DNA of 64,000 bases from an uncultured Latescibacterota bacterium (GTDB lineage: Bacteria; Latescibacterota; UBA2968). Shown here in pieces: positions 1,049 through 39,449 of the stretch (position 1 is the first letter of the stretch; the number at the start of each line of letters is the position of its first letter). The position numbers and the translations under genes were made by a program. Location of the stretch: the NCBI GenBank assembly GCA_951812755.1, contig OX638329.1, positions 2,982,522-3,046,521 on the forward strand, given 5' to 3'. The notes beneath the pieces were generated by a model. The model made no database searches and had not been told where the DNA came from. It was given only the letters and a program-made list of their open reading frames with translations.

Positions 1049-2082
1049 AACCCGTTCGTATGGGTATGATTGGATTGGGGCATATTCCACAGAATGCACA
1101 TTTGCCGGCCCTTTCCCAATTGGTTGAAAAAGGTGAGGTGGTATTGCAGGCATTTTGCGATGTGGATCAGGGCGTTGTGTCTGAGCAGGCAAAGGTGTGG
1201 GGCGCAAAATCCGTTTATACGGATCACCGCGAGATGTTTGACAAAGAGGAATTGGACGGGGTTTATGTGTGTTTGCCCCCGACCTTGCATACGGATGCAG
1301 AATTGATCGCAGCAGAGAAGGGAATCGCCCTTTTTGTAGAGAAACCGCAAAGTTTAGATATGGCTCAGGCTGTGGCTTTTGGCGAGGCGATTGATAGGGC
1401 GGGTATTGTTTCCCAGGTGGGATTCATGAGTCGCTATTATCCTTCTGCTGAATATTTGAAGGCCAGGCTCGAAACGCGAATTCCGCGACACGCACAGGTG
1501 CAGTTGTTTTACAGCGGGCGGCATATCCGATACTGGACGAGTCGCATGGCTCTGTGTGGGGGGTCGTATGTGGAAAATACCATTCACATGATCGATCTGT
1601 TGCGTTTTTTTCTCGGCGATATTGAGGCGGTGTCGGCGTTTTATTTTTACCGTGCGGAAGGTGAAGGGCCAGATCCGATCAATTTGCCTTATGTCTATAA
1701 TGTGAATTACCGATTTAAGAGCGGCGTGGTTGCCAATGCGACGACTTCGCGGGTGTTGAATGTGAATTATTCGCGGCGCGAAGTGACGGTGGTGGCCGAC
1801 GACGCGCTTTTGGAGTGGTCGGCGCAAAATGTCGTGTTGAACGGTGAAGAAGTCGCGGCGTGGGAGAGTCGTCCCAATGCGTTTGCGTTACAGACAGAGG
1901 CATTTGTGGATGCGATACGCAAAGGAGACCGCACTGCGATGCGGAGTTCTTATGGCGATGCCCTGAACAGTCTGGCGGCTGTGCTGGGGGCCAATGCCTC
2001 GGCAGAACGCGGTGGAGAACTTGTGCTGTTAGAGGACATGATTGCAGGGCGAGTGACGTGGTCGCCTGGAGAGGATGTCTGA
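1045..2082 (+). CDS. Gfo/Idh/MocA family oxidoreductase
   Basis: 345 aa; N-terminal Rossmann 'MGMIGLGHI'; translationally coupled to the upstream AKR gene. Confidence 0.7.
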   Translation: MKPVRMGMIGLGHIPQNAHLPALSQLVEKGEVVLQAFCDVDQGVVSEQAKVWGAKSVYTDHREMFDKEELDGVYVCLPPTLHTDAELIAAEKGIALFVEKPQSLDMAQAVAFGEAIDRAGIVSQVGFMSRYYPSAEYLKARLETRIPRHAQVQLFYSGRHIRYWTSRMALCGGSYVENTIHMIDLLRFFLGDIEAVSAFYFYRAEGEGPDPINLPYVYNVNYRFKSGVVANATTSRVLNVNYSRREVTVVADDALLEWSAQNVVLNGEEVAAWESRPNAFALQTEAFVDAIRKGDRTAMRSSYGDALNSLAAVLGANASAERGGELVLLEDMIAGRVTWSPGEDV

Positions 2083-2084
2083 CC

Positions 2085-3482
2085 GTGGATATACATTTTG
2101 CAACCCTATCAGAATTGGGCGCGTGCTATCGGGTGGGCGATGTGTCGCCGGTTGAGGTGGTGGATGCGTTGCTCCGGCGCATTGAAGATTGCGGTGGTCG
2201 GACAAAGGCGTTTATTACAGTTACTGCAGAACGCGCTCGCGCGGAGGCACAGGCGGCGGAAGCGATGTTGCGGTCGGGATCGGATTTGGGACCTTTGCAC
2301 GGTATTCCAATCGCGCTAAAAGATCTATTTCACACAGCGGGCATTCGCACGACTTCAGGTGCGAAAGTATGGGATACTTATGTGCCAAAGGATTCGGCAA
2401 CCGTCGCAAAGCGTCTTTCGCAGGCTGGTGCCGTGTTGATGGGGAAGACCAATATGGTGGAGCTCGCGTTTGGGCCTTATGGTTTGAATCCCCATTACGG
2501 TACGCCGCCTAATCCGTGGGGATCAGAACGCGTACCGGGTGGGTCGAGCAGTGGGTCGGGGGTGGCTGTGGCGGCGGGGTTGGTGCCTGTTGCGATGGGC
2601 ACAGATACGGGGGGTTCTATCCGCATCCCGGCGTCGTTTTGCGGTGTTGTGGGGCTCAAGCCCACGTTGGAGCGGGTGAGTCGCGCGGGTGCAATGCCGC
2701 TTTCGTGGACGCTTGATAGCATGGGCCCCTTGGCGCGATCTGTGGAAGATGCTGCGCTGGTGTTTGAAGCGATTGCCGGGCCTGATGCGGCTGATCCGGT
2801 GACGCTAAATCAACCTCTGGTGGATGTGGTTCGCGGGTTAAAGCGAGATGTGAAGGGGATGCGCGTCGGGTTTGTGCGCGATCCGTTTTGCGATGGGGCA
2901 GATGCTGTGGTTATCGCTTCGGTAGAAGCCGCGGCAGGGGTTTTGTGTGATCTGGGGGTCAATGTGGAGGAATTCCAATTTCCCGAAGCGCGGGAAGAGT
3001 TAGACGAAGAGCTTGACGGACGCGGCAGTGCGATGATTATGTGCGTGGAGGGGTATGTGTGTCAGGGGGATTTTATAGCCAGGCATGGCGAGATGATGGA
3101 TCCGCGCATTCGAGCGCGGATTGCACAGGGTGCGTCTTTTTCTGCGCCAGATTACGCAAGGGTTTTACAGCGGCGCGAGCAGTTGCGAATCTCGGCCTGC
3201 GAGACCCTGCGAGATGTGGATGCCGTGATTTGTCCGACGATGTTGACGGTTGCACCGCGTATCGCAGATGTCGATGTCGCGCCCGCCAGGTTGACAACGC
3301 GGCTGGTCAACTTTTTGGGTTTATGCGCGGTATCGGTTCCGTGTGGATGGTCCGATGAGGATTTACCCATCGGTTTGCAGATTATCGGCAAGCCTTATGA
3401 CGAGGCCCGAATTTTGCGCCTGGCGTATGCTTATGAGCAGGCGGTTGGTCCCCGCCGCGATCCCAACTTCATTCAGGCATAA
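2085..3482 (+). CDS. amidase (amidase-signature family)
   Basis: Signature 'GGSSSGSGVAVAAG...GTDTGGSIRIPASFCGVVGLKPT'; start set to GTG 2085 just after the upstream stop, because the longer ORF from 1860 overlaps the oxidoreductase. Confidence 0.75.
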   Translation: MDIHFATLSELGACYRVGDVSPVEVVDALLRRIEDCGGRTKAFITVTAERARAEAQAAEAMLRSGSDLGPLHGIPIALKDLFHTAGIRTTSGAKVWDTYVPKDSATVAKRLSQAGAVLMGKTNMVELAFGPYGLNPHYGTPPNPWGSERVPGGSSSGSGVAVAAGLVPVAMGTDTGGSIRIPASFCGVVGLKPTLERVSRAGAMPLSWTLDSMGPLARSVEDAALVFEAIAGPDAADPVTLNQPLVDVVRGLKRDVKGMRVGFVRDPFCDGADAVVIASVEAAAGVLCDLGVNVEEFQFPEAREELDEELDGRGSAMIMCVEGYVCQGDFIARHGEMMDPRIRARIAQGASFSAPDYARVLQRREQLRISACETLRDVDAVICPTMLTVAPRIADVDVAPARLTTRLVNFLGLCAVSVPCGWSDEDLPIGLQIIGKPYDEARILRLAYAYEQAVGPRRDPNFIQA

Positions 3483-6238: not shown

Positions 6239-9200
6239 GCGCGGGCTACGGCTGTAACGCGCTTGGCAAATTGCGAGAGATCATCCATGAGGGAATAGAC
6301 CGTAGGCAAGAGCACAAGGGTCAGGATTGTTGAGATAGATAGCCCGGAAATAACCACCAGACCAATTGGTCCCCAGCGCCTTGAGGTGCCTTCGGCATTG
6401 CCAAAGAGCATCGGCAATACCAGGGGCATCAGGCCAATAATAGTGGTGGTAGCGGTCATCATAATCGGACGCAAGCGGTCCTGGCCGCCACGGATAATAG
6501 CATCGCGACGAACAAGCCCCTGTTTTCGATATCTGTTGATGTGATCAACCAGGACAATGCCGTTGTTGACCACAATGCCAAAGAGAACGAGAAGGCCGTA
6601 CTTGGCATTGCTGTCCATAGCGATTTTGAAGGTGTAGAGACCGAGCGCGACGCCGATGAATGCGAAGAAGATGCAGAACATAATAGTGAGCGGATGGACA
6701 TAGGATTCAAAGAGCGAGGCCATGATGATGTAAATGAGAATAAGTGCCAGGATCAGGGTCTCATAGTCCTGGTTTTGTTCTGCATTCATAGATCTGAAGC
6801 GGCGATCCATTTCATACGTATATCCCTTGGGCAAGGGTACGCCTTCCATGCGCATTTTCATGATCTGGCCCACGCGAAATACCGCTTGCTGGTCAGTGTT
6901 GGCAAAAACGGTTACAGTTGACATGCGGTCTTCGCGTTGAATCGTGTTGCGGCCTGTTGTCAGGTCGAAATTCGCCAGGCTGGAGAAGGTGACCATGCCG
7001 CCGTTGTCGCTTTCAAATTCCGTTGTTTTGAGTTGTTCGAGGGTGGCGCGGTCTTCTTCGCGCAGCAGCACTGTGATGTCGATTTCGCCATCGGGGGTTT
7101 TGAAGTTGGAGCCACCGCGCGAACCGAGCGCAGAGGCGATGGTGTTTGCAATATCGCGCGGCGAGAGACCGTAGCGCTGTGCGCGCTCGCGATTGACTGT
7201 GACGCGAATTTCCTCGGTTCCGCTTTCGAGGCTGGTCTGTATTTCGTGAACGCCGGGCATCCCCTGCATGCTGGTTTCAATGTCTTCGGCCAAAATGGCC
7301 AGTGTTTCCTGGCTGCGTCCTTTGAGCTGAACGCCAGCCCCCACGGAAGAACTACCGCGGCCACCGCCAGATTTGAAACGCACGCCTGGAATGTCTTTGG
7401 GCAAGAGGGCGATAACTTTGCGCTGAACTTCATCTGTGGTGAGTTTGCCTTCGTCTGCCGGTGTGAGATAAAGGGTCAAGCGGGTACCGCGCCGACCGCT
7501 GTATCGGCTGCCAATGGCTTCGATGTCGAGTTCGTTTTTTAAGGGGATGAGTATGTCTTCGGCAATTTTGAAGATCTCACGCGCTTTATCCACATCGTAG
7601 CTGCGGGGCATTTCAATGGTGAGTCTTACAGCGCGACTGGGCTGATAGCGGAAGGGTTGTTGCTCTACTTTGCCGTAGATGTAGTTGCCGACAAAAAGAA
7701 GAACAACAGCCAGGGAGAGGGTTGCCCAGCGGTAGTGAAGGGTGGAAGAGACCAATTTGGCGTACATCGCTTTGGGACCGATTGCGCGGTAGCGAAAATA
7801 GAGAAAGATGACCAGTGCAATGATGCCGGGAAAACCAATTTTGGCAAATGCTGGCAACGCGCTGATGGTCGTGTTAAAATTTCCCCACAGGCCAGCGTAA
7901 TCAATTTTGCTGAAGTCCGTATAATAAATAAAGGCTCCCAGACCGAGCGCGGCTACAAGGCCGACAATGCTCTTGAGAACGCGATCAAGGATTTTACCAT
8001 CTTCATTGAAGGCGCGAGAGGCTGCAAGCGGAATAAGTGAGAGCGCGATACTAAATGAGGCAATAACAGATATGATTACGGTAACGGCAAAGTCGCGCAT
8101 GAAGAGCGAGGTACGCGAGTCGGTGACAAAAATGACCGGGATAAATACGCAGATGGTCGTGAGCGATGCAGCGAGGACTGGAAGACCGATTTCATCGCTG
8201 CCCTCGAGCGCGGCCTGTCTGGCATCTTGCCCTACTTCAAATCGTTTGCGAAAGATATTTTCAAGGGCCACGACCGCGGGATCGACGAGCATGCCGATGG
8301 CGACCATCAGACCCATCATGGAAATGAGATTGAGGGTGATGTTCGATCCGGATTGCCGCATGAAGTACATGATCAGGAATACGGTGAGCACACTGATGGG
8401 GATCGCAGAGCCGATAATGAGCGTACTGCGGAAGTTGCGAAGAAAAATAAAGATGGCGATGACGGCCAACAGACCACCCAAAATAGCAGATTGGCTGAGG
8501 CTGGTAATGCTATTTGTCACGTCGATGGATCGGTCGCGCACTATGTGCAGGCGGAGTTTGTCTTTCCCGACCTCTTCGTGGATGAGGGCGAGTTCGTCGC
8601 GCGCGAGTTTGCAGACATCGACCATGTTGGCCGTTGAGGCTTTCTGGATTTCAAGGGTTAGCGAAGGACGCCCGTCGAGGCGTTCAAAACGGCGGGATTC
8701 GGGATAATCGTATGTGACATCGGCAACATCGTCGAGAATGAGATTGGGGCGAATGGGCAGATCGCGAATTTGATCAACGGTTTCAAATTCACCCATGCTG
8801 CGAACAGCGAGACGTTTGTTGCCTTCGGTGACATATCCCGCAGAGACATTGATATTGTTGTTGTTCAGAGCGCGATTGATGGTGCGGAAGTCCATCTTAT
8901 AGGCTGTCATGGCTTTTTGATCGACTTCGATGAGGAGGTCTTTTTCTTCCAAGCCCTCGAGTACGACATTGGCGACACCTTCGAGACGCTGTATTCTGGG
9001 CAAGATCATTTGATTGAATACGTTGACGAGTTCCTGGTTGTTTTCACCAAGCCAGGTGAGAGAGTATTCGAGGATGGGAAAGTCTTCGGTGTCGAAACTG
9101 CGAATATCGATGCGATCGACATCGGCGGGCAGATCGGCGCGAACTTGATCGAGGCGGTCGCGGATGTGAACGCCGACGATATCCATATCGGCGTCCATCG

Positions 9201-12562: not shown

Positions 12563-12625
12563 ATCCGCAGAAAAAAACGCGAATAATTTGAGCGTTTTTC
12601 GCAGATGAACGCAGATAAAAAAAGG
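12563..12625. repeat. dispersed intergenic repeat, copy A
   Basis: 'CCGCAGAAAAAAACGCGAATAATTTGAGCGTTTTTCGCAGATGAACGCAGATAAAA' is near-identical to the reverse complement of 33569-33630. Confidence 0.6.
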
Positions 12626-27533: not shown

Positions 27534-28244
27534 CTAAGATAGTGCCATTTCCAATTTGTGCTTTCGTTTTATCCAATCGGGGAGCATGCGCTCAAGTAAG
27601 TTATAAAACTCTGCCCCGTGATTGGGATGAAACAGGTGACATAACTCGTGGACGACGACGTATTCAATACATTCTCTGGGTGCTTTGATGAGTTCCAGAT
27701 TTAACGTCAGGCTGCCTTTGCTGCTCAAACTGCCCCAGCGCGTTTTCATATTGCGGATTTTGAGGATGGGTTTATTCACCCCCTTTTTTTGAAAGGGACG
27801 CCAGCATTCCTCAAACACTTTCAAAAAATAAATATTCGCCTTGCTTCGGTACCATTCTTCAAGCAACATCGCGATATGTTCAGGCTCGTTATTAACCGTT
27901 GCTATGTGAAAAAATCCCTGCTTTAGCAAGACCTTATCCGTTTCAGCCTGTCTTATCTTCAACCGATACTTTTTGCCCAGGTACAGGTGGCTTTCTCCTC
28001 CGACAAATCGCCGCTCTGGAGTTCGCGGGTCAAACTGTGCGAAATAGCGAAGCTGGCGTCTTATCCAACGCGCGCGTTTGTAAATGAGACGCTGGATGAG
28101 GTTTGTATCTGTTTCCAGTGGTGCTTTTACGGTCACTAAGCCGTTTGGATGAACGGCAATTTCGATAGATTTTCTGTTGGAATAACTCAGATGAAAGGGA
28201 ATGGATTCGCCCGCGTATGTGATGGCGTGCTGAGTTTCCGACAT
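27534..28244 (-). CDS. YgjP-like (DUF45 / M48-type) metal-dependent hydrolase
   Basis: 'VVVHELCHLFHPNHGAEF' motif; immediately after hsdR, a common arrangement. Confidence 0.75.
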   Translation of the reverse strand: MSETQHAITYAGESIPFHLSYSNRKSIEIAVHPNGLVTVKAPLETDTNLIQRLIYKRARWIRRQLRYFAQFDPRTPERRFVGGESHLYLGKKYRLKIRQAETDKVLLKQGFFHIATVNNEPEHIAMLLEEWYRSKANIYFLKVFEECWRPFQKKGVNKPILKIRNMKTRWGSLSSKGSLTLNLELIKAPRECIEYVVVHELCHLFHPNHGAEFYNLLERMLPDWIKRKHKLEMALS

Positions 28245-28249
28245 TAAGG

Positions 28250-31200
28250 CTACCTCCAGAATTTGGCAATCCTCATTGCTTGGCTGATCATTTCGTCCAT
28301 TTGTTCCGAAGATAAATCAATGCCATGTATGTCTTCCACCACATCGTAGAAGAAATCATCAATCTCGTTTTTTACGACATTTTGCGCGTCGCTATCGTTC
28401 CAAAAATCTACCTTCCAATTCCTTTCTATCGCGGTTTGAATGGCAAGCGTTGTTTTTATTGCTATGCCATCGGTCTGGCTTTCATCGATATCAATTTTTG
28501 AGAAACAGGGTTTAATTGCGCCAAAATATGCACAGGCTTCACGATTATTGCGAATCTCGTCGGGCACATCGTCGCGTTGAGAGCTTTCGACCTTATCGCG
28601 AATATCGCTCACCTTTTGCAGATAATCCAGGGCTAATATCCGTTGCTGCCTGAAATCGTCGATTGCCTCCTGAATGAGCTTTGAGAATTTCTCGTAAAAA
28701 GCAGGGTCTTTGTCCATGTTTTCGGTAATCTTGCGCTTGGTTGCATGCGCGATATGGTCGGCGTTTGCCGCTATATTTCGGGTGCGGTAGATGCCTCGCT
28801 CCTCTTTGACCACAGAAAAGGTGTTGTTATCAAAAATATCCACGGGATCGTTTAATTGGGTGACTTCGTTTGCCTGAATATGCGTGTTTAGCAACTTTTT
28901 AATTCGGGTGTCATAGTCGCCGTAATCAATGGCTTCGGCGTAGCGCAGTCTGACAGCCTGTCTCAGTTTCTCAAAACGCAAGAGATCGCTTTTGTAGCGT
29001 TTGAGTTGGGCCTCGTCGGTCTGCATAATGAACTGCTCAGATGAAAGCGCGATGGCAAGGGTTTTGCCGTATTCCGTGAGGCGTTCATAAAAATCTTCCC
29101 GCAATGCGTCATCGGATAGGAGGACTTCGTAGCGTTCTTCATCGCGGGAATTTTTAATTTCTTTGAATATATCCCAGAGGTCCGAGTAACGTTGCGGCAA
29201 TTTTTGTATTTCTTCCTGGATGGAGACCAGGACATTGGCGAGATCCGCTCTGTCAAAATCCGCAAGCGCGTCGTATTCGTTCAGTGCTTTGTCCAGTTCA
29301 CCCAATACATTGGCATAATCAACGACATAGCCAAATTCCTTATTTTCGTGTACGCGATTAACCCGGGCAATAGCCTGGAGCAATGTGTGTTCGCGCAACT
29401 TACGGCACAGATAGAGCACGGTATTGCGAGGCGCGTCAAATCCGGTGATGAGTTTATCTACTACAATCAAAATTTCCGGATCGTCCGCGTGTTTGAACTG
29501 TGCGATGATTTGTTTGTTGTATTGGTCTTCGGAACCATAACGAGCCATCATTTTGTTCCAGAACGCGTTGACCTCATCTGTTTCTTCGCCTACCTCTTCA
29601 TGCCCCTCTCGCGTATCCGGGGGAGAAATAACGACCTCCGATGAAATATCATTTATCTCATTGAAAAATTCTCGATACTTCAGGGCAGTCGCTTTGTTGG
29701 GTGCTACAAGTTGCGCCTTAAATGGGGTGTTCTGCCAGTTTACGCGGTAGTGTGTGCTTATGTCAAATGCGCGCATATAGACGACCTGGTCTGCCTGATT
29801 GAGTGCATCTGCACGGGAATATTTTCTTTTTAAGTCGGCTTTTTGTTGGTCTGTCAGGTTTACCGTATGGCGTTCGAACCACAAATCAACCGCGTTTTCG
29901 TTTTGCTCTATCTCTACATGCCGTCCTTCGTACAGTAGGGGAACCACTGCCTTGTCTTTGATCGCCTGTCGCACGGAATAGTGCGGTTCAATAAGACCTC
30001 CAAATCTAACAAAACTGTTCTTCTCTCTTTTGAGCAATGGCGTACCTGTGAAGCCGATGTAACAAGCATTGGGTAACATCTGCCTCATGCGCGCTGCGAG
30101 AGAACCGAAGTTTGTGCGGTGGCTTTCATCTACGAGGACGACAATATCCGCTGAATCATCAACGTATTTTTCAGCAGAAAGTGCCGTATCAAATTTATTG
30201 ATCAGCGTCGTGATGATACCCACTTTGTTTTTGATGTGTTTGACCAGATTTCGCCCGGTTGTCGCCCGCTCCATGTCCAGGCCACAGGCTGCGAAGGTGT
30301 TGCCCAGTTGTTTATCCAGGTCTTTGCGGTCTGTAACGAGAATCATTCGGGATTTATTCAGTTCGGAGTTCAGAGCCAGAGTACGCGCGAGCATGACCAT
30401 TGTGATGGATTTCCCAGATCCCTGAGTGTGCCAGACAATGCCGCCCTGGCGGCGTCCTGTCTTGTCTATTTGTTTGATGCGATTTATTGCGGAACGAACG
30501 AGAAAGAACTGCTGGTATCGGGCTATTTTCTTACTGCCAAGGTCAAAGACGATAAAGCCGTAAATGAGTTCCAACAGACGCTCTGGACGGCACAGGCTGT
30601 AAAGACATCTATCCTGTTCCGTGAGCAGTCGGTCTCCTGTGCTTTCAAGCGCGGCGAAGTGCGATAGCGCCAGAGCAAAATCGCCGCGGAATAGGGCGTC
30701 TTTGTCTTCAGCGGAAAGGGTTTTATTGATGCTGGCATTCACTTCGTGAGCAGAATCCTCCATTTCGTCCCATAAGCTCCAGAATGCCTTTGAAGTTCCC
30801 ACCGTTGCGTACTTCGCCTCATTTTTGTTTATAGCCAGCAATATTTGTGCGTAAATGAAAAGGCGCGGGATATATTCTTCGCCCTGATTGCGGATTGTTT
30901 GAGATATGGCCTGCTCAACATCCACATCGGAGCCTTTGCATTCGATTACAACAAGGGGAATACCGTTCACGAATAGTATAATGTCGGGCCTTGCGGTTTC
31001 CAGGCTGCGGGTGCGTTCAACAGAAAATTCCGCTGTGGCGTGAAACACATTGTTCGCGGGATTTTTCCAGTCGATATAGTTCAGGGTATAACTTTTGGAA
31101 TCGCTCTCGATGGTTTGTTCAAGTGATGTGCCAAGCGTTATCAGGTCGTAGATTACTTCATTTGTTTTTTGCAGACCATCGTATTGGATATTTTTGATTT

Positions 31201-31438
31201 TCTGAATGGCAGATTGAATATTCTCCTCGCTGAATAGATACAGACCGCCTTTGTAGTGAATGCGGTTTATTTTTTTAAGCTGATCGCGCAAGATGTTTTC
31301 CAGCAGAACATTTGAGGCACGACCACCGCGTTCTACCATCGCCTGCTCGGGGGGCAGATACCGGTAGCCCATGTTAATTAGCTGTTGCAGGGCAGGTATC
31401 TGGGAGAGGTGTTTTTCGCTGAATGGGAAGGTAGGCAT
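28250..31438 (-). CDS. hsdR: type I restriction endonuclease subunit R
   Basis: 1062 aa; helicase motifs ('HTQGSGKS', 'DESHR') and HsdR-like N-terminal nuclease region. Confidence 0.9.
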   Translation of the reverse strand: MPTFPFSEKHLSQIPALQQLINMGYRYLPPEQAMVERGGRASNVLLENILRDQLKKINRIHYKGGLYLFSEENIQSAIQKIKNIQYDGLQKTNEVIYDLITLGTSLEQTIESDSKSYTLNYIDWKNPANNVFHATAEFSVERTRSLETARPDIILFVNGIPLVVIECKGSDVDVEQAISQTIRNQGEEYIPRLFIYAQILLAINKNEAKYATVGTSKAFWSLWDEMEDSAHEVNASINKTLSAEDKDALFRGDFALALSHFAALESTGDRLLTEQDRCLYSLCRPERLLELIYGFIVFDLGSKKIARYQQFFLVRSAINRIKQIDKTGRRQGGIVWHTQGSGKSITMVMLARTLALNSELNKSRMILVTDRKDLDKQLGNTFAACGLDMERATTGRNLVKHIKNKVGIITTLINKFDTALSAEKYVDDSADIVVLVDESHRTNFGSLAARMRQMLPNACYIGFTGTPLLKREKNSFVRFGGLIEPHYSVRQAIKDKAVVPLLYEGRHVEIEQNENAVDLWFERHTVNLTDQQKADLKRKYSRADALNQADQVVYMRAFDISTHYRVNWQNTPFKAQLVAPNKATALKYREFFNEINDISSEVVISPPDTREGHEEVGEETDEVNAFWNKMMARYGSEDQYNKQIIAQFKHADDPEILIVVDKLITGFDAPRNTVLYLCRKLREHTLLQAIARVNRVHENKEFGYVVDYANVLGELDKALNEYDALADFDRADLANVLVSIQEEIQKLPQRYSDLWDIFKEIKNSRDEERYEVLLSDDALREDFYERLTEYGKTLAIALSSEQFIMQTDEAQLKRYKSDLLRFEKLRQAVRLRYAEAIDYGDYDTRIKKLLNTHIQANEVTQLNDPVDIFDNNTFSVVKEERGIYRTRNIAANADHIAHATKRKITENMDKDPAFYEKFSKLIQEAIDDFRQQRILALDYLQKVSDIRDKVESSQRDDVPDEIRNNREACAYFGAIKPCFSKIDIDESQTDGIAIKTTLAIQTAIERNWKVDFWNDSDAQNVVKNEIDDFFYDVVEDIHGIDLSSEQMDEMISQAMRIAKFWR

Positions 31439-31455
31439 TGCATTGTTCCTGTTTT

Positions 31456-31514
31456 ATCCGCAGATGAATATTATCCGCATATGAACGCAGATATTCGCAG
31501 ATAGAGGCAGATAA
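31456..31514. repeat. cluster of CGCAGAT-type motifs in the hsdR upstream region
   Basis: 'CGCAGAT' at 31459, 31486, 31496 and GGCAGAT at 31506 (10-bp spacing for the last three), CGCATAT at 31476. Confidence 0.4.
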
Positions 31515-32018
31515 AATTCTTGTGAAGCTGGAAGATTACGAGCTTATGACTCTGGTCTCTGATTCATCTCGCTTTGGCTGCATCTCCGTTTTCTTACACG
31601 ACTTCTCAATCATTATCGGTCGCTGGCCTATTGCCTTCTAATTGCTGAAAGCAATTTTTGTTGGGGTTGCATATTTAAGAATGTATGCGAGTTTTCGCAA
31701 ATTTCTGCTTTCCAACTCTTTTTTTGTAAACAGTACAAAAAATACTATAAATTCGTCACAGTCGATATATCCCGTGATTTCTTGACAAGGTAACTGATCC
31801 GAAGTCACTACTCTAATATATGTATTTCTTTTATCGGTTCTTTTAGCAATACTTCGGACAGTTTTTAGGTGTAAAGGTTCTTTGAAATCAACAGGTTAGA
31901 TGAGACCCCATGTTTTATTTACAAGTTAGCCCTATACCCTGAGTTTGATAAAAAAACTGACAATTCTATAAACCGTTGTATTATAGAAACTTAGGGTTTT
32001 TGACTAATTGGAAACCTA

Positions 32019-32129
32019 TCAAAAAGTGTCCGAACCATTGTTGGTGTTCAATCCATTTTTAAATTCCATAAATTCACCAAGCTGAACTTCCCGCCATCCC
32101 TTCGGCAACTGCCCATTTTTCACTGTCAT
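32019..32129 (-). pseudogene. orphan N-terminal fragment of an hsdS specificity-subunit gene
   Basis: 'MTVKNGQLPKGWREVQLGEFMEFKNGLN' matches the conserved HsdS N-terminus, then stop; followed by about 500 bp of AT-rich ORF-free DNA. Confidence 0.4.
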
Positions 32130-32166
32130 TCTATTATCCCCTGTTGAACTGTGCAGTACTTCTGGC

Positions 32167-32388
32167 TCACCAACTCTTTCCTTGCAGTTCCTTCGGGAAG
32201 AGCTTGCGGCTGGAGAGCCGGTCTTCATCTAAAACGTGAATAAGGTATTCGAGAGTTTTCCGCTGTTCGTCAGTATCGCCCTCATCCATCCATGACTGGA
32301 CCAACTGCACAAGACCGGCTGCACGGTCATCAGAAGTTTTGCTTTCACTGACAATCTCGGTAGGATTTTCTGAAAGCCTTTTATCCAT
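32167..32388 (-). CDS. hypothetical small acidic protein
   Basis: 73-aa ORF inside the R-M island; no recognisable motif. Confidence 0.2.
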   Translation of the reverse strand: MDKRLSENPTEIVSESKTSDDRAAGLVQLVQSWMDEGDTDEQRKTLEYLIHVLDEDRLSSRKLFPKELQGKSW

Positions 32389-32427
32389 ATCTCTGTCCTC
32401 TCATCTCATCGCTTTTGCCCTCCTGCT

Positions 32428-32775
32428 TTATGTCTTGACCGCCTGCAATTTCTCTGTTTCAGAAATCTCGCATTGTGGCGCGGGCAGTTGGGTGATGATG
32501 TTCGCAATCAGCGTCTCGTCCTTGTTTGACATGGCATTCGCCACATCTTGAGGATTGCTATGCGTCTTTCGCGCAAATTCTCGCGCACCGCCTTGTCCTT
32601 CAACAGCCGCACTGAATCCGTAATAAAGCGCGGCACCATCCGGATCTTTTTCGTGCTCTTCCAATAAGACTTCAAGGAAGGAGAGAGCTTTATCGATATC
32701 CGAAAACTTTTCGATTAAGTAGTCGCGGAAATCTATCATCTGTCTCATCGTTGGGTCTCCTTGTAATTTTGCCAA
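32428..32775 (-). CDS. addiction-module antidote protein (HTH antitoxin)
   Basis: 115 aa; 'AALYYGFSAAVEGQGGAREFARKTHSNPQDVANAMS' antidote-like; directly downstream of and overlapping the toxin gene. Confidence 0.55.
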   Translation of the reverse strand: MAKLQGDPTMRQMIDFRDYLIEKFSDIDKALSFLEVLLEEHEKDPDGAALYYGFSAAVEGQGGAREFARKTHSNPQDVANAMSNKDETLIANIITQLPAPQCEISETEKLQAVKT

Positions 32776-33080
32776 TAGGTTTTTGCGCGTTCAATGTCTC
32801 GCGTTTGGGAAGACTTATCGCCGCCGCAGAGCAACAGGACGATGGTGTTGCCGACTATACCAAAATAGATGCGATAGCCTGCTCCAAAATGGAAACGGGT
32901 TTCAAAAATACCGTCACCGACAGATTTCCAGTCGCCAAAATTGCCGCCCGCAAGACGACCAAGGCGTGCTTGAATCCGGTCCTGCGTTTTTTGATCGCGT
33001 GACTCAAACCATTCGGTGAAAGGCACTCGCCCATTTGAATGCTGGTAAATTTGCAGTTTTCTCGGTTGCGTAGCAAGCAT
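32745..33080 (-). CDS. RelE/ParE-family toxin (addiction-module killer type)
   Basis: 'FHFGAGYRIYFGIVGNTIVLLLCGGDKSSQTRDIERAK' matches the killer-protein C-terminus. Confidence 0.6.
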   Translation of the reverse strand: MLATQPRKLQIYQHSNGRVPFTEWFESRDQKTQDRIQARLGRLAGGNFGDWKSVGDGIFETRFHFGAGYRIYFGIVGNTIVLLLCGGDKSSQTRDIERAKTYWQNYKETQR

Positions 33081-33116
33081 TCTCTATCTGCCCTTTGCCT
33101 GACTCATGGTGCAATT

Positions 33117-33485
33117 TTAGGTCTCGACTGCCTGCAATTTCTCGGTCTCTGTTTCAGATGTCTCGCATTGCGTCGCGGGCAGTTGGGCGATGATGTTCGC
33201 AATCAGCGTCTCGTCTTTGTTTGACATGGCCTGCGCCACGCCTTGAGGATTGCAATGCGTCTTTCGGGCAAATTCTCGCGCACCGCCCTGTCCTTCAACA
33301 GCCGCACTGAATCCGTAATAAAGCGCGGCACTATTCCCGTCTTTTTGGTATTCTTCCAATTCCGTTTGAAGATAGGAGATGGCCTCCTCAAAGTCAGAAA
33401 GCCCTTCGATTAAGTAGTCGCGATAATTTCTCATTTCTCTCATCGTTAGGTCTCCTTGTAGTTTTACCAATAGGTTTTTGCGCAT
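33117..33485 (-). CDS. addiction-module antidote protein, second paralog (orphan)
   Basis: 122 aa, near-identical core to 32428..32775. Confidence 0.55.
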   Translation of the reverse strand: MRKNLLVKLQGDLTMREMRNYRDYLIEGLSDFEEAISYLQTELEEYQKDGNSAALYYGFSAAVEGQGGAREFARKTHCNPQGVAQAMSNKDETLIANIIAQLPATQCETSETETEKLQAVET

Positions 33486-33551
33486 TCAATGTCCCGTGCC
33501 TGCGAAGATTTGTCGCCGCCGCAGAGCAGGAGGACGATTGTGGCATCTGTA
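33486..33551 (-). pseudogene. 3' remnant of a duplicated RelE/ParE-like toxin gene
   Basis: Encodes only '...TIVLLLCGGDKSSQARDIECAKTYW*'; 5' part replaced by repeat copy B. Confidence 0.45.
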
Positions 33552-33568
33552 AATATCTTTTGATTTAG

Positions 33569-33630
33569 CCTTTCATCTGCGTCTATCTGCGAAAAACGCT
33601 CAAATTATTCGCGTTTTTTTCTGCGGATTC
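33569..33630. repeat. dispersed intergenic repeat, copy B (inverted relative to copy A)
   Basis: Reverse complement nearly identical to 12563-12625; supplies the last codons and stop of the RhuM-like gene. Confidence 0.6.
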
Positions 33631-34658
33631 CGACCCAATTGTCGTTCCAATTCTTTAGTTTCTCTATCAAAATCAGATTCAAACAAACGATCCTGAACAA
33701 TTCGGTATTTCTCAAACTCGCTTTCGGCATGGGCTTTGGCAATCTCGGCACTGACTTGTCCGCTGTCTTTCAATATCTGCCGGTCAAAAGCCTCGAGAAA
33801 TATATCGAGGCGTTTTGCCCAGTCCTCCATTGTCATGGGTATCTTGCGCTGTGCCCGGTCTTCGGCGAGGTCAATATAGGCGTTGACGATACGCCCAAGA
33901 GATTCCAGTTCTTCTTTCGACAGGTAGTTCTTTGCGACAGAGACATCAGACTTCAGGATTTTGCCGGTTGGGGCTTTCTCCCAGGTGGCAAGCCCCATGT
34001 GCCGCTGACCGCTATCTGCCCGCTGTTGTATAAATTCCGCCGTAGTATGGCCGTGAATAGCATAATGCAGTTTGTTTTGCACTCTGGCGAAAAACTCGCG
34101 GGTGGTCGGCGCGTCCCTGTTATAATCCATGCTGGTGGTGTAAATGTCGGCGATCTTTTGGTAAAACCGCCGTTCGCTCAGACGAATCTCGCGGATTTCT
34201 TCCAGCAACCGCTCAAAATAGTCCTCGCCGAGAAACGCGCCATTTTCCAACCGCTGCTTATCCAGAACATAGCCTTTGATCGCAAACTCCCGTAAAACCC
34301 GGGTTGCCCATTGGCGAAATTGCGTGGCGCGTCTGGAGTTTACCCGATAACCGACCGAGATGATGGCGTCCAGATTGTAAAAATTGGTAGTGTAGTTTTT
34401 GCCATCAGCGGCAGTATGTGCAAAACTTGCACATACTGAATCCTGGTCTAACTCGTTGTCATTAAAGATATTTTGCAAGTGCTTTGTAATAACTGAGCGA
34501 TCCACGGAAAATAACTCCGCCATGAGTTTTTGTGTCAGCCAAATGGTGTCGTCCTGGTAACGCACTTCAATACTATCTTCACTGGCCTGGTTGGTAAAGA
34601 TCAAAAATTCCGCTGTGCTGCTGCGGATAGTCAGATCTTTTGAGGATCTCTTGCTCAT
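33600..34658 (-). CDS. RhuM-family (Fic/DOC-related) protein
   Basis: 352 aa; 'DAIISVGYRVNSRRATQFRQWATRVL' is characteristic of RhuM; 4-bp overlap with hsdM. Confidence 0.65.
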   Translation of the reverse strand: MSKRSSKDLTIRSSTAEFLIFTNQASEDSIEVRYQDDTIWLTQKLMAELFSVDRSVITKHLQNIFNDNELDQDSVCASFAHTAADGKNYTTNFYNLDAIISVGYRVNSRRATQFRQWATRVLREFAIKGYVLDKQRLENGAFLGEDYFERLLEEIREIRLSERRFYQKIADIYTTSMDYNRDAPTTREFFARVQNKLHYAIHGHTTAEFIQQRADSGQRHMGLATWEKAPTGKILKSDVSVAKNYLSKEELESLGRIVNAYIDLAEDRAQRKIPMTMEDWAKRLDIFLEAFDRQILKDSGQVSAEIAKAHAESEFEKYRIVQDRLFESDFDRETKELERQLGRNPQKKTRII

Positions 34659-36169
34659 GCTCGTTTTACTCCCTCCATTAATCTCCCTATCTCTCCCCGT
34701 ACTACGATTAACTCCTCTTCCAGTCGGTCTATCTCAAGCTGCACTGCATCAATATCAATCTCCTCTTCTTCTTCAAAGGTATCTACATAGCGAGGAATGT
34801 TTAAATTGAAGTCGTTTTCTTCAATTTCTTCAAAGGTGGCGAGGTGGGCGTATTTGTCTATATCCTGGCGTTTTTTATAAGCGGTGGTGATTTTTTCAAT
34901 GTGCTCGTCCAGCAATGCATTTTGATTTTTCCCGGCCTGATATTCGCGGCTTGCATCAATGAACAAGACATCTTTGCGGTTCTCATTTGCTCCCCCTTGT
35001 TCTCGCGAGCGGTCAAAGACCAAGATGGCGACTGGTATTGAGGTCGTGGGGAACAGATTGCCCGGCAAGCCAATGACGACGTCGAGCAAGTTTTCTTCAA
35101 TGAGTTGCTGGCGAATGCGTCCTTCGGCACCACCCCGGAACAAAACACCGTGAGGGACCACAACAGAAACCCGGCCTTGTTTTTCCAAAGCCGCTTCCAC
35201 CATGTGGCTGATAAACGCATAGTCGCCTTTGGATTTGGGAGGCAAACTGCGCCAGAAGCGGTTGTATATGTCTGCCTCGGCGTCTTCCGCGCCCCACTTG
35301 TTAAGTGAAAACGGGGGATTGGCGACTACATTGTCGAATTTCATCAACCGATCGGATTCCACCAGTGCCGGGGCAGTGAGCGTGTTGCACCATTCAATGC
35401 GGGCTGCATCGGCACCGTTTAGAAACATATTCATACGCGCCAATGCCCAGGTGCTGCCGTTCACTTCCATTCCGTAAAGGGCGTGGTTTTTGTCGCCCAC
35501 TACGCGCGCGGCTTCAATGAGAAGACCAGCGGAACCGCAGGCGGGATCACAGATACGGGCGCCGGGTTTGGGCGCGCACAGTTTTGCCACCAGTTCGGAT
35601 ACCTTGTGTGGCGTGTAGAACTCGCCGGCTTTTTTGCCCGCGTCAGATGCGAAGCGTTCAATCAGGTAGATGTAGGTGTTGCCGATCACATCTTCCGAAA
35701 CCCGTCTGGGACTCATATTCAATTCGGGTTTGTTGAAATCTTCCAGCAGTGTTTTTAGACGGCGGTTGCGGTCTCTGGTCCTGCCGAGACTTGTCTCGCT
35801 GTTGAAATCTATATTTCGGAAAACACCTTCCAATTTCTGTTTGTTTTCCGTTTCAACCGCCTCCAGTGCGATGTTGATGAGTTCACCGATATTGGGAGCA
35901 GAGCGCTGTTCATAAAGGTTGTAAAAACTACTGCCATCCGGCAATACAAAACGCTCATTCCTCAGCCTGCGCCTGATGCGTTCATCGTTATCGCCGTATC
36001 GTTTTTTATATTCCTCGTAGTGGTCCTTCCAGACATCGGAAATGTATTTTAGAAACAGCATTACGAGGATGTAGTCCTTATATCCGGCTGCATCCATCAC
36101 GCCGCGAAAGGTGTCGCAGGCAGCCCAGGCAGCGTTGTTGATGTCTTTTTGTTGGATTTGACTGTTCAT
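34655..36169 (-). CDS. hsdM: type I restriction-modification DNA methyltransferase subunit M
   Basis: 504 aa; 'ICDPACGSAGLLIEA' SAM-binding motif and 'NPPF' catalytic motif. Confidence 0.9.
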   Translation of the reverse strand: MNSQIQQKDINNAAWAACDTFRGVMDAAGYKDYILVMLFLKYISDVWKDHYEEYKKRYGDNDERIRRRLRNERFVLPDGSSFYNLYEQRSAPNIGELINIALEAVETENKQKLEGVFRNIDFNSETSLGRTRDRNRRLKTLLEDFNKPELNMSPRRVSEDVIGNTYIYLIERFASDAGKKAGEFYTPHKVSELVAKLCAPKPGARICDPACGSAGLLIEAARVVGDKNHALYGMEVNGSTWALARMNMFLNGADAARIEWCNTLTAPALVESDRLMKFDNVVANPPFSLNKWGAEDAEADIYNRFWRSLPPKSKGDYAFISHMVEAALEKQGRVSVVVPHGVLFRGGAEGRIRQQLIEENLLDVVIGLPGNLFPTTSIPVAILVFDRSREQGGANENRKDVLFIDASREYQAGKNQNALLDEHIEKITTAYKKRQDIDKYAHLATFEEIEENDFNLNIPRYVDTFEEEEEIDIDAVQLEIDRLEEELIVVRGEIGRLMEGVKRA

Positions 36170-36186
36170 ATTTTGTTACTCCATTA

Positions 36187-36492
36187 TTAACGATCACCAC
36201 AGGGTGGATTATATCGATTCCGCAGTTCTGTCTCGATAATAGTACGGTCATCTGAATTACAGTAATAAGCCGCGTAACTCTGATAGGGATAACCTACCGA
36301 TTTCCAACAGTATTTCCGTTCATGATTTTCTACGCGTTTCTTCACATCCTCCGATTCACCTATATCAACAGGCGTCCAGAGTTGATGTATCGTGCGCCGC
36401 CCTAAAATGGCATACACTCCGGATTCATTTCTAAGATCGGATGTATCATCAAGAGGACCTTCAAAGCTGTAACGTCCTATTCCAATAGTCAT
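36187..36492 (-). CDS. small GIY-YIG-like nuclease-domain protein, tentative
   Basis: 'GVYAILG...VDIGESEDVKKRVENHER...E...N' fits GIY/YIG/R/E/N spacing; start set to internal Met 36492. Confidence 0.35.
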   Translation of the reverse strand: MTIGIGRYSFEGPLDDTSDLRNESGVYAILGRRTIHQLWTPVDIGESEDVKKRVENHERKYCWKSVGYPYQSYAAYYCNSDDRTIIETELRNRYNPPCGDR

Positions 36493-36688
36493 GTCAATAA
36501 CTCCTATTTTATAGGGGTGATTTAAGGATGCGAATAAAGAGTAGAAATCATGGCACAATGACAAACAAAACCTTTCTGGATTGCGGCTAAAAACGTGCCG
36601 CAATGACAGGTGCTATTCCCATCGTCACGCCTGCATGCCTTAAGCAGGCGTCCAGAATAGGGAAGGTGCTCTGAACTCTTTAATGGCA

Positions 36689-37270
36689 TTAAGGTTTTTC
36701 AGATTCATTTAACAATCGCATCTGAATTGTTTTGACCAGTTTTTCCTTTTGCTCTGCCAAATTTTTCATCAGCCTTTGTTCCTTATTTAACAAATCGGCA
36801 AGGGCGACGATTTGTTCTTGTATTTCCAGATTGGGGAGAGGGATTTCCAGAGCATCAAGAGCGGATTTGCCTATCATGGTCATTATCGTTCCGGTCGCCC
36901 TGCTGTGTAAAAATGCTTGTGATGAGGATAGGTTGATACACCAACAAAGATATTCCGGTAGAACATTTTTGCTTGTGACGCGGATCAAGAATAGCGGGGC
37001 CGAGACAACCGTCCGTCCGGGTTCCTTATCAATGATTGTCGCCGTAGTAGTTTTGCCTCGGGAGCGGAAAACCAAATCTTTGCATTCGACCAGATGGCGC
37101 TCATTGATGCCGTTTATATTAATGGTCATTAGGTTGCCATAATCCAATTTATCTTCGATTAGATCGCGCATCTGAATGACAGCCACATTCCCATCTGCTT
37201 CCGGCTCAATACGGGAACGAAAGGAGAGGCCCATCTGAACAAGAGCGATGTCTTTGAGCTTGTATTTCAT
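36689..37270 (-). CDS. hsdS: type I R-M specificity subunit S, short single-TRD form
   Basis: C-terminal 'LPNLEIQEQIVALADLLNKEQRLMKNLAEQKEKL' is the conserved HsdS coiled-coil; about 193 aa from ATG 37270. Confidence 0.75.
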   Translation of the reverse strand: MKYKLKDIALVQMGLSFRSRIEPEADGNVAVIQMRDLIEDKLDYGNLMTININGINERHLVECKDLVFRSRGKTTTATIIDKEPGRTVVSAPLFLIRVTSKNVLPEYLCWCINLSSSQAFLHSRATGTIMTMIGKSALDALEIPLPNLEIQEQIVALADLLNKEQRLMKNLAEQKEKLVKTIQMRLLNESEKP

Positions 37271-37414
37271 AATTACTGGTAAAATATAAAAGTTGCCAGT
37301 TGTGGGAGAAATTATATTACAGAAAAGCCTTTCCTGCAATATAAAGAAAAAAATTCCACTCTGTCAAGTGAAAGTCTTCATTTAGCCGCGAATTGGCGTC
37401 CTGTTCAGATCCCT

Positions 37415-37547
37415 CGCCTTCATCTGCGTCTATCTGCGTTCAGGCTCAAATGAACTGCTGTCACAGTTGTAAACAGCTCACTCGCCTTCATTCTGTGGAC
37501 CCTTTGGGTTTTGCCTTTCATCTGCGCCCATCTGCGAAAAACGCTCA
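37415..37547. repeat. degenerate CGCAGAT-motif repeats plus left half of repeat copy C
   Basis: 'CATCTGCGTCTATCTGCG' at 37421-37438 and 'CATCTGCGCCCATCTGCGAAAAACGCTCA' at 37519-37547. Confidence 0.5.
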
Positions 37548-37735
37548 GAGACTGTTTTAAAACTCATTTTGCCCCTTCTCAGCTATGCGCTATTGCACTG
37601 TCATTCTGAGCGGAGCGCAGCGGAGTCGAAGAATCTCTTGCCAACTCAGGTGGAAAAGATGCTTCGGCTACGCTCAGCATGACAAAACGCCGAACATCCG
37701 TAGCATCAGGTATTAATTTTAAAACAGCTTCTCAG
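37548..37735. mobile_element. MITE-like insertion (~185 bp) splitting repeat copy C
   Basis: Imperfect terminal inverted repeats GAGACTGTTTTAAAA / TTTTAAAACAGCTTCTC; flanking CTCAGA on both sides; internal palindrome GTCATTCTGAGCG / CGCTCAGCATGAC. Confidence 0.35.
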
Positions 37736-37760
37736 ATTATTCGCGTTTTTTTCTGCGGAT
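37734..37760. repeat. right half of repeat copy C
   Basis: 'CAGATTATTCGCGTTTTTTTCTGCGGAT' contributes '...IRRKKRE*' and the stop of the sulfatase gene. Confidence 0.5.
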
Positions 37761-39449
37761 CAGCATCACGCGCCGCACATCCATTACCTGTGAATTGGAT
37801 ACGTCAAGGGCGCGCAAGGTCAGGGTTCCTCTACCCGCGTTTAGCTGGATTGTTCCCAGTGTCAATGGCTCGAAATCCTTTACATAAGACTCGCCTCCAC
37901 GCGGATAGCGGTCATCCGCTGCGCCGATTTGTGGTGGGTCGTGTGCGTCGGTTACCTGTCCTTGCACTTTTGTTGCTTGACCTTGCGCGGGGTGAAATGC
38001 CAACTCGACGGTTGATCCCACATCTTCTTCTGGGCAGGTATAATAAACCGCCGCTTCATAATCGCCCGTTGTGCCGACCTCAATATCCCAGGTCATCCGA
38101 TCACCAACTTGTGTCCAGTGCGTAAAATAAGAACAGTTGGGCGCGCCGGCACTGCGCTGGACTGTGCCGTGATGCACCCCGTCTCGTGCGGGCAAGCGAG
38201 TCGTTTTCCAGTAGCCTGTGGCAAAGGGACGGTCGTCGTTGACGGGCAAGACTTCGGCGTGGAATTTTGCTGTTGCATCTGATAATTCCGCATGGACATC
38301 AGGGTATTCTTGCGATACATCTGTTGTCTGTCCACCATCGGCGCCCATATCGTATAACTTGCCCTCTATGTCCAATCGGAATCGCTGATTGCGCGCGCTC
38401 AATTGCGCCCGCTGATGTGACAAGATGATGCGGTCAGACCATTCGACATCTTCGCCCAATAGCAGGGGTTTGAGGCTGCGACCATCCAGCGGCTTTTCAA
38501 CTTTCAGGTCGATATCCGCAAGGTCGGCAAATGTGGGCAATAAATCAATCGCTCCGGCGATTTCTTCAATGACTGTACCAGCCTGGATATGCCCTTTCCA
38601 GCGCATCAAGCCCGCCACGCGCACGCCGCCTTCATCTGTTGATCCTTTTGTGCCTTTCATCCCGCCATTCCAGCGCGCGCCATTGGGACCATTATCTCCA
38701 AAATAAAATACAATGGTATCTTCCGCGATTTCCAACTCATCGAGTTTGTCCAGCAATCGCCCCACGTTCCAATCGATATTTTCGCATAGAGCCAGTGCCG
38801 CCCGCGTGCGTTCTATCTCTTCTTGATTGGGGTTGGTCGCCAGCATCTCAATCGGTTTATCGCGGAATGGATCGTAAAATCGGTCGGGCACCTGAAATGG
38901 GGTGTGCGGGATATTGTAGGGAAGATAACAGAAGAACGGTTGATCCCGTTCGACATTTGCCGCCATAAAATCCATGGCGCGATCTGTACACTCATCGGGT
39001 AAGTATCCCTTTCCTCGCGTGAGTTCGCCATTGTGTTCGAGTTCGGCATCGAAATATTGCCCCCAGTGTCCGGAACAGAACCCAAAAAACTCGTCAAATC
39101 CCCGCGCGTTCGGATGATAGGGATGCTGCGTGCCATTGTGCCACTTGCCATAAGCTCCCGTGGCGTATCCGGCGGCTTTGAACACATCGGCAATGGTTGT
39201 TTCATCGAGGTTCAGTCGTTCGGCGCCGGTGCTTACGCCGTGGACACCGCCGCGCAGATGATAGCGACCCGTCAAAAACTCTGCCCGCGTGGGCGCGCAT
39301 ACCGGGCAGACGTAAAACCGGTCGAATAGGGCGCCATCTCGTGCGAGAGAATCCACATTGGGTGTGTTGAGATTTGTATTGCCGTGTACACTCAAATCGC
39401 CCCAACCCTGATCGTCGGTCAAGATCACGAGAATATTTGGTCTGGTCAT
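37737..39449 (-). CDS. sulfatase
   Basis: '[15 protein letters not shown]' formylglycine motif; 'LTDDQGWGD' N-terminus; ~150-aa C-terminal extension. Confidence 0.85.

Follow-up and report, generated by a model that had tools for sequence, protein, structure and literature searches.

A half-size specificity gene and a GIY-YIG-fold protein at the head of a reduced type I restriction-modification operon suggest an undescribed accessory module

[quoted passage not shown] Does a further part belong to some of them? This question is raised by a 64,000-nucleotide stretch of DNA from an uncultured Latescibacterota bacterium (contig OX638329.1, positions 2,982,522 to 3,046,521), referred to here as the window. 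Of the genes that lie between positions 27534 and 37340 of the window, all in minus-strand orientation, 11 are intact, and two stubs accompany them, one of a toxin gene and one of hsdS. The system that they encode is, judged from its genes, of the type I R-M kind. Its operon opens with a half-size hsdS (its product is called S-half here), continues with the gene of a 101-amino-acid (aa) GIY-YIG-fold protein (p101) and only then reaches hsdM. A GIY-YIG-fold protein adjoins or is fused to a half-size S in many bacteria, which suggests that S-half and p101 together form an undescribed accessory part of type I systems.

The link between the two proteins is seen first in gene order. Genes were identified by profile searches with Pfam, NCBIfam and PADLOC, and about 35 related loci served as the comparison set (loci are cited by L numbers and proteins by P numbers). 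Among homologues with at least 45% identity to p101, 21 of 23 distinct loci show, as far as their flanks can be seen, an S-half gene next to p101 on the upstream side and hsdM on the downstream side, the exceptions to this order being L034 and L036. In-frame fusions of S-half and p101 were also found, namely P0146 (327 aa) and P0207 (337 aa), whose S-half parts are nearly identical and whose p101 parts are clearly different. Each fusion gene is directly followed by hsdM, hsdS, an unknown gene and hsdR. In an AlphaFold2 (AF2) model of P0146, a recognition domain with predicted local distance difference test (pLDDT) values > 90 is followed by a 48-residue helix (residues 149-196) and then by a 30-residue low-confidence linker ahead of the GIY-YIG part. 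The model was built with S-half homologues only; its GIY-YIG part is of low confidence and, at a predicted template modelling (pTM) score of 0.55, no domain interface is readable from it.

Supporting this, the two proteins change together. Across loci, the identities of S-half and p101 to their window counterparts co-vary, and both diverge faster than hsdM. For example, L001 is identical to the window at 81% of S-half, 62% of p101 and 99% of HsdM positions. By these comparisons, p101 is tied to S-half rather than to hsdM.

Structure prediction and a fold search gave p101 the GIY-YIG alpha/beta fold, bearing out a call that an earlier sequence-only reading of the window had made by eye. That reading was right about the gene and its fold; the 138-aa open reading frame (ORF) listed for it includes an upstream extension that is absent from all relatives. 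The start codon is fixed at MTIGIG because homologues keep a length of about 101 aa and an MxIxIG start. A profile search of 1.84 billion cluster representatives recovered 1085 members at E <= 1e-3 and 526 at E <= 1e-10, nearly all of about 100 aa, and the family comprises about 1,000 clusters at 50% identity. Conservation was scored in 50 diverse members. G25, W63 and Y77 are present in all of them, and the remaining conserved positions in nearly all (Y27 in 46, D43 in 48, G45 in 47, E46 in 46, R53 in 48, H57 in 47, R59 in 48, R83 in 47, E87 in 44 and C98 in 49). The catalytic Tyr, Arg, His and Glu of GIY-YIG enzymes have their counterparts in Y27, R53-x3-H57 and E87, an assignment made from the order of motifs and from secondary structure rather than by superposition. 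The ratio of nonsynonymous to synonymous substitution rates (dN/dS) of p101 is 0.27-0.56 among close relatives and 0.16-0.20 among distant ones.

The p101-linked clade spans Latescibacterota, Alpha- and Gammaproteobacteria and one conjugative plasmid. The p101 family alignment led to nine loci in reference genomes, and the metagenome scan used the close-family alignment. Plasmid searches returned one clear locus and three weak matches of about 29% identity; the clear locus lies on plasmid NZ_CP085149.1 of the cultured strain Sulfitobacter dubius DSM 109990, where the protein (WP_243263991.1) is labelled in RefSeq as a hypothetical protein. The phage collection held no match to p101. The PADLOC candidate PDC-S14 was considered as a possible home for the protein and rejected: p101 shows weak similarity to it over the GIY-YIG core (a local match of 44 residues, E 1.4e-5), and PDC-S14 models are 280-320 positions long, of which p101 matches only about 45 (44 of 320). 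Elsewhere in the family, a p101-type domain is fused to TIR (P0120) and another is tandem-duplicated in the 295-aa P0170.

The other half of the pair is, on comparative grounds, a conserved gene at a fixed operon position, not a leftover. S-half starts with a conserved MKYKL and carries one Methylase_S domain (PF01420, E 1e-9, residues 2-171 of 193) followed by one long helix, as is found in half-size HsdS proteins of about 190-200 aa. In PADLOC it best matches a Specificity_I profile of 208 positions (E 9e-26). Orthologues lie directly upstream of p101 or hsdM in related loci, and dN/dS is 0.09-0.19. Single-domain S subunits of this general kind are reported to dimerise, methylate palindromic sites and add phage resistance beside a complete type I system (PMC12418389). 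Like the truncated lactococcal HsdS proteins of that study, S-half has one recognition domain and one conserved helix and is additional to a complete system. It differs from them in being no truncation product: it evolves separately, is fixed upstream of hsdM and has a dedicated small partner.

The pair stands at the head of a recurrent operon layout, in which half-size hsdS, p101, hsdM, cargo, full-length hsdS, cargo and hsdR follow one another, with ygjP at the end where the contig reaches that far. This layout was found in Latescibacterota, Spongiihabitans, Pseudolabrys, gammaproteobacterial contigs and many metagenome contigs, as well as in a betaproteobacterial-type island adjoining integrases and on the conjugative plasmid of the cultured Sulfitobacter dubius. 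From this distribution, the layout is taken to be ancestral and widespread. All genes of the window locus have dN/dS < 1, which marks them as real genes under purifying selection, and HsdM, HsdR, the S domain, RhuM, the TIGR02683 toxin and YgjP all score at or above the curated thresholds of Pfam, NCBIfam or PADLOC. The region has a GC content of 0.41-0.49, against 0.52-0.55 in its flanks.

A full-length hsdS, of 377-486 aa, is present in all relatives whose sequence is complete in that part. In the window, homology to the relatives runs through the 73-aa ORF (p73) and the first ~30 hsdS codons, ends at 32038 and restarts at ~31521, upstream of hsdR. The hsdS stub matches the N-terminus of the L011 hsdS (phmmer E 4e-16), and the stretch without genes between the stub and hsdR is ~580 bp long. 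Within it, positions 31527-32037 gave only a self-match by blastn against all fetched loci and no match in Rfam. The homology break together with these unmatched 511 bp indicates that full-length hsdS and any following cargo were lost. Thus, on this comparison, the window is a reduced copy, from which a deletion removed full-length hsdS and whatever lay behind it; an HsdS with the full set of two recognition domains and two conserved helices is missing from the window, which has only the stub and a single-domain S. In relatives, the cargo behind hsdS consists of a PIN-TPR-GreABC giant protein, transposases, a SLATT-like and SMODS pair, or DUF3800. We regard this anatomy, a reduced type I R-M operon of a recurrent layout, as very well founded. 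The window locus is a partly decayed copy, and its annotation as an intact R-M system is not appropriate.

This outcome reverses the direction of the sequence-only reading, which had described a type I locus expanded into a composite defence island, where the window now appears as a reduced copy of an ancestral, widespread layout. Its inventory held up: all the genes it listed are present at the positions it gave, on the minus strand; hsdR and hsdM, which it placed about 3 kb apart, are separated by 3.2 kb; and profile matches of HsdM, HsdR, RhuM, the toxin of the toxin-antitoxin (TA) pair and YgjP agree with its type I operon with defence-type cargo. It had singled out two small ORFs, to be given up if they did not recur in other R-M loci, and both p101 and p73 were found there. 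As a new accessory component the GIY-YIG ORF is credible; it is linked with the short hsdS, the first operon gene, rather than with hsdM. The 73-aa ORF, listed there as unknown, does have relatives and is the C-terminal module of antitoxin-like proteins.

How could the S-half and p101 pair act? S-half would dimerise via its helix, as is known for single-domain S subunits, and the dimer together with HsdM would recognise a site that is bipartite and symmetric and would methylate it. p101 would be a minimal GIY-YIG nuclease domain without a DNA-binding domain of its own, so that it would have to be carried to DNA by S-half, on which it may be held non-covalently or, in some bacteria, by a flexible covalent linker. 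Delivered to S-half sites, it could act as another nuclease arm that does not depend on HsdR, or it could be some other effector of the R-M complex. This mechanism, with S-half and HsdM at a symmetric site and p101 carried there as a nuclease, is offered as a tentative account. The more specific proposal, that a large class of type I R-M systems has in S-half and p101 a second, so far unrecognised nuclease arm, in which a type I domain guides a GIY-YIG nuclease to a symmetric site protected by HsdM, is more doubtful. It is similarly doubtful that cleavage would be independent of HsdR translocation, making the system a type I/type II hybrid whose slot may alternatively hold a DUF2188-like effector or sensor. 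The logic would not be without parallel. In type IIB/IIG enzymes such as BcgI, an S-like module directs methylase and nuclease to the same site, the PD-(D/E)XK nuclease being fused to the methylase. The proposed arrangement shares the use of a type I-kind recognition domain to position a nuclease, the nuclease role of p101 being predicted.

Several observations weigh against p101 as a nuclease delivered by S-half. The slot between S-half and hsdM is not always filled by p101: S-half stands straight before hsdM in L016, L019 and L020, and in L016 it does so with 88% identity in S-half, 95% in HsdM and a clean junction. In L052-L054 a 77-aa DUF2188 gene takes the place of p101 (7663-7896), and P0215 is a fusion of half-size HsdS with DUF2188. 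A slot that may be empty or occupied by DUF2188 may hold adaptors or regulators, not a nuclease. The active site also departs from the canonical one. The second GIY-YIG Tyr is not found in p101, where Asp43 stands in 48 of 50 members and Tyr in the other two, including the fusion P0146, which keeps the canonical residue at this position; nor is the GIY-YIG Asn position conserved. The window p101 has no match in Pfam or NCBIfam and scores below the gathering threshold of PF01541, a profile weakly matched by six of 50 relatives (best E 3.7e-5). Distant relatives (34-48% identity) occur outside R-M loci, one of them adjoining an HNH gene. As to S-half, its helix shares no more than 22-28% identity with the conserved helices in full-length S proteins of relatives, which means that use of the same HsdM is assumed. 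In none of the other compared loci is S-half the only S, so it may not replace the full S and the window system may be dead.

This last point leads to the explanation that fares best among the rivals, namely that the window locus is a dead remnant left after the loss of full-length hsdS, in which the small ORFs have no present function. The window is alone among the loci in lacking full-length hsdS, and its further signs of decay are the stub of a toxin pseudogene, inserted repeats, the 196 nt inserted between S-half and p101, and a p73 without partner gene. However, hsdM, hsdR, S-half, p101, rhuM, toxin, antitoxin and ygjP have all kept their full length and intact catalytic motifs, and single-domain S subunits can support both methylation and restriction (PMC12418389). 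The intact hsdM and hsdR may themselves reflect a recent deletion. A dead remnant is on balance an unlikely reading of the window, albeit one to be kept in mind, and it concerns the state of one copy, not the nature of the module.

Two further explanations do concern the module, and we consider both improbable. According to the first, S-half is a plain extra specificity subunit for a symmetric target, and p101 is a GIY-YIG gene of selfish or homing type that is unrelated to it, came to lie between S-half and hsdM, and spreads with the neighbouring cassette. This would account for the variable presence of p101 among close relatives (L016 lacks it at a clean junction), for its dN/dS among them, and for the far greater divergence of S-half and p101 than of hsdM in L001, which is expected from cassette replacement or co-conversion. 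Moreover, the top viral fold matches of p101 are homing-type endonucleases. Nevertheless, p101 lacks the DNA-binding domain that free-standing homing endonucleases need, and it was found in no phage record. Across phyla, S-half, p101 and hsdM keep this order even where p101 identity is as low as 45-56%, at the lower dN/dS of the distant comparisons, and two in-frame fusions with S-half have been maintained.

The second explanation is given a similarly low probability. Here p101, like DUF2188, would be a non-catalytic adaptor, sensor or regulator on S-half, controlling the assembly or timing of methylase and nuclease, or sensing anti-restriction proteins and triggering the cargo. PrrC, which is held latent by the EcoprrI type I enzyme, provides a precedent. 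The interchangeable slot (p101, DUF2188 or nothing), the finding of both small domains fused to the C-terminus of S-half, the replaced second GIY-YIG Tyr and the TIR fusion P0120, in which the non-TIR part would usually be a sensor, all fit such a role. Against this, the residues of GIY-YIG chemistry (Tyr, Arg, His and Glu) are kept in 88-96% of diverse members, which a pure adaptor would hardly explain. Finally, an assembly chimera is unlikely, because the nearest loci (83-93% p101 identity) lie in several long-read Candidatus Latescibacterota chromosomes that have an identical gene order and the same two sulfatase genes upstream.

Comparison with known systems indicates where the locus departs from them. 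It shares with classical type I R-M (HsdM2 HsdS1 HsdR2, as in EcoKI and EcoR124I) an HsdM, HsdS-type and HsdR protein recognised at curated thresholds, and with those classical systems that carry in-operon cargo the position of cargo between M, S and R, with RhuM and YgjP in their usual places. In contrast to these, an extra half-size S leads the operon and is followed by a small GIY-YIG-fold protein, and the full-length S has been deleted in the window. Relative to GIY-YIG nucleases (the UvrC N-terminal domain, T4 EndoII, Eco29kI, Hpy188I and I-TevI), p101 has the same fold and keeps the Tyr, Arg-x3-His and Glu; it differs in consisting of the catalytic core plus an extra N-terminal beta-hairpin, in having Asp for the second Tyr, and in its own C62/W63 and PPCG motifs. 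A precedent for joining a GIY-YIG domain to a type I subunit exists in Methylococcus capsulatus, where such a domain is inserted in HsdR (PMC1564403), whereas p101 is linked to the S subunit.

Within an incomplete coverage of the literature, no account was found of type I operons that begin with a half-size S and a GIY-YIG-fold protein, whether as a pair or as a fusion, nor was an entry for such a combination found in Pfam, NCBIfam or PADLOC. Likewise, a description of the module was not found in the literature on PDC-S14 and DUF2188. If the proposed role of the pair is correct, textbook type I R-M would gain a component through this module, which may explain extra symmetric methylation motifs and would couple a programmable recognition domain to a compact nuclease. 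This can be tested directly, since the module is carried by a cultured strain, Sulfitobacter dubius DSM 109990.

Table 1. Features of the R-M locus, in window coordinates and in the order of transcription.
Feature	Position	Strand	Remarks
Promoter-like site	37338..37367	-	TTGACA, 18 nt, TATATT; ~70 nt upstream of half-size hsdS start
S-half, 193 aa, first operon gene	36689..37270	-	One target recognition domain and one long conserved helix
Spacer between S-half and p101, insertion	36493..36688	.	196 nt
p101, stand-alone 101 aa, GIY-YIG fold	36187..36492	-	Structure prediction and fold search
HsdM, type I N6-methyladenine (m6A) methyltransferase, intact	34655..36169	-	TIGR00497; NPPF and DPACGSAG motifs
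rhuM, cargo	33600..34658	-	PF13310 E 8.5e-108; overlaps hsdM by 4 nt
Dispersed repeat copy	33547..33630	-	Supplies last codons and stop of rhuM; truncates upstream toxin copy
Toxin pseudogene stub	33443..33541	-	Last 33 codons, internal stop
Second antitoxin copy, 108 aa, without toxin	33117..33443	-	74% aa identity to first copy
RelE/ParE toxin, HI1419 type	32745..33080	-	TIGR02683 113.5 bits (cut-off 62.85); weak Gp49 match
Cognate antitoxin, 106 aa	32428..32748	-	By position; ATGA overlap with toxin gene
p73, 73 aa	32167..32388	-	Short variable N-terminus and conserved ~50 aa antitoxin-tail module
Stub of the full-length hsdS	32019..32129	-	36 codons, ~30 of them hsdS-derived
AT-rich DNA in place of hsdS body and downstream cargo	31527..32037	.	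511 bp, GC ~0.41
HsdR, intact, 1062 aa	28250..31438	-	TIGR00348
YgjP-like zinc metallopeptidase-fold gene	27534..28244	-	PF01863 E 4e-59; usual last gene of operon type

The remaining R-M subunits of the window are well preserved (Table 1). HsdM scores 283.7 bits against TIGR00497 (cut-off 242.75) and also matches PF02384 (E 2e-100) and PF12161 (E 2e-27); it is 94-99% identical over its full length to the proteins of Latescibacterota relatives, with a dN/dS of 0.02-0.06; the hsdM values taken together span 0.02-0.10. HsdR reaches 476.5 bits against TIGR00348 (cut-off 284.55), is full length relative to its orthologues, shows 92-93% identity to those of L010 and L016 over all 1062 aa (dN/dS 0.12), and carries the nuclease D...ExK and a DESH helicase motif. 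The YgjP-like protein, whose HELCH sequence is an HExxH motif, scores 200.5 bits against PF01863 (threshold 26), and its gene follows hsdR in L003, L010, L014, L016, L044 and L051. An Rfam match to the ALIL pseudoknot inside hsdR on the opposite strand (29610-29718, +) reached 23.8 bits, against a gathering score of 50, and was treated as chance.

The spacer between S-half and p101 is shared only with L007, other relatives having 4-30 nt in that place. Its positions 34-113 also occur elsewhere in L009 and L010, and the spacer holds two hairpin-forming stretches. The promoter-like site ahead of S-half agrees with the consensus at 11 of 12 positions and is the top-scoring one in the region; it is a consensus match only, and the total count of promoter-like sites in the region is not above that of shuffled sequence.

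The second small ORF, p73, is a real gene, given its 43 homologues (most of them 85-96% identical) and a dN/dS of 0.10-0.22. Its conserved tail reads LVQLVQSWMDEGDxDEQRxTLEYLIxxLDEDRLSxRKLFPKELxGKSW. The same module forms the C-terminus of P0043, whose N-terminus is half an HI1420-type antitoxin domain (PF21716, E 1e-9), and of the ribbon-helix-helix protein P0058, which has sub-threshold FitA-like, HicB and RelB-like matches. Downstream of the P0058 gene, and overlapping it, lies a 150-aa gene in L018 that has PIN-like acidic motifs and a PIN match below threshold (E 1.2e-3). Because the module ends a ribbon-helix-helix protein that overlaps a PIN-like gene, p73 is most likely what a VapB-type antitoxin would be without the DNA-binding domain, a toxin-binding tail. 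Its likeness to VapB-type antitoxins would lie in the 50-aa module; it differs from them in lacking the DNA-binding domain and in having no PIN gene nearby, and the PIN match of its relative is below threshold. In related type I loci p73 lies between hsdM and hsdS, and several p73-bearing loci have a PIN-TPR-GreABC giant protein behind hsdS. No PIN gene or other partner for p73 was found in the window, and its most economical interpretation there is an orphan antitoxin remnant or a small regulator. In L019, an HsdM (1793-3457) carries a 50-aa C-terminal extension homologous to the p73 module (phmmer E 9e-18).

In the relatives, conflict-system genes are nested in the operon between hsdS and hsdR (L001 14670-18899, L002 14506-18567, L020 8807-10258 and L003 13401-14719). 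They comprise PIN-TPR-GreABC giants, one of them with TIR, and the SLATT-like/SMODS pair.

Between p73 and hsdM, the window carries rhuM and a partly duplicated TA cassette. RhuM scores 359.8 bits against PF13310 (threshold 33.7), matches the PADLOC candidate PDC-S05 (E 2e-154) and occupies the same slot in relatives. The toxin stub is 88% identical to toxin residues 79-111 (tblastn), and together with the second antitoxin it forms a partial direct repeat (D1) of the TA cassette, 300 nt long at 84% identity. For the toxin, a sequence search of the PDB returned only MglB matches, which were judged to be chance. The antitoxin has no match in Pfam, NCBIfam or the PDB; assignment to the HI1420 type (PF21716/TIGR02684) was rejected, given the lack of a profile match and an hhalign probability of 2.9% against the HI1420-like half domain. 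Relatives have one to three antitoxin copies and up to two toxin copies in varying order. This variation, together with the fusion of an antitoxin segment to hsdS in L001, L007 and L008, points to frequent recombination among repeated TA cassettes. In these three loci (L001 13203-14663, L007 15221-16780 and L008 14634-16145), the full-length HsdS has an in-frame N-terminal extension of ~100 aa homologous to the window antitoxin. Phase variation by hsdS inversion is rejected, since the hsdS pieces share no inverted repeats and a recombinase is absent.

A dispersed repeat, ATCCGCAGAAAAAAACGCGAATAAT..GAGCGTTTTTCGCAGATnnnCGCAGATGAA, built on CGCAGAT motifs, recurs in the window beyond the copy at the end of rhuM. 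Further copies lie at 12563-12620 (+) and at 37502-37547 and 37731-37760 (-), with partial copies at 37419-37438 and 31486-31515, and the sulfatase gene at 37737-39449 likewise takes its final codons and its stop from the repeat. It is found at several module junctions of the R-M locus, in the window and in relatives, and may act as a recombination substrate. The copies at 33.6 and 37.5-37.7 kb were considered as attachment (att) sites of an inserted module and rejected in view of a third, intergenic copy at 12.56 kb and the copies at the relatives' junctions. Downstream of the sulfatase gene, an insert of ~180 bp (37548-37730) splits a repeat copy and is bounded by a 24-nt inverted repeat (37544-37567/37712-37735); from this structure, the insert looks like a miniature inverted-repeat element.

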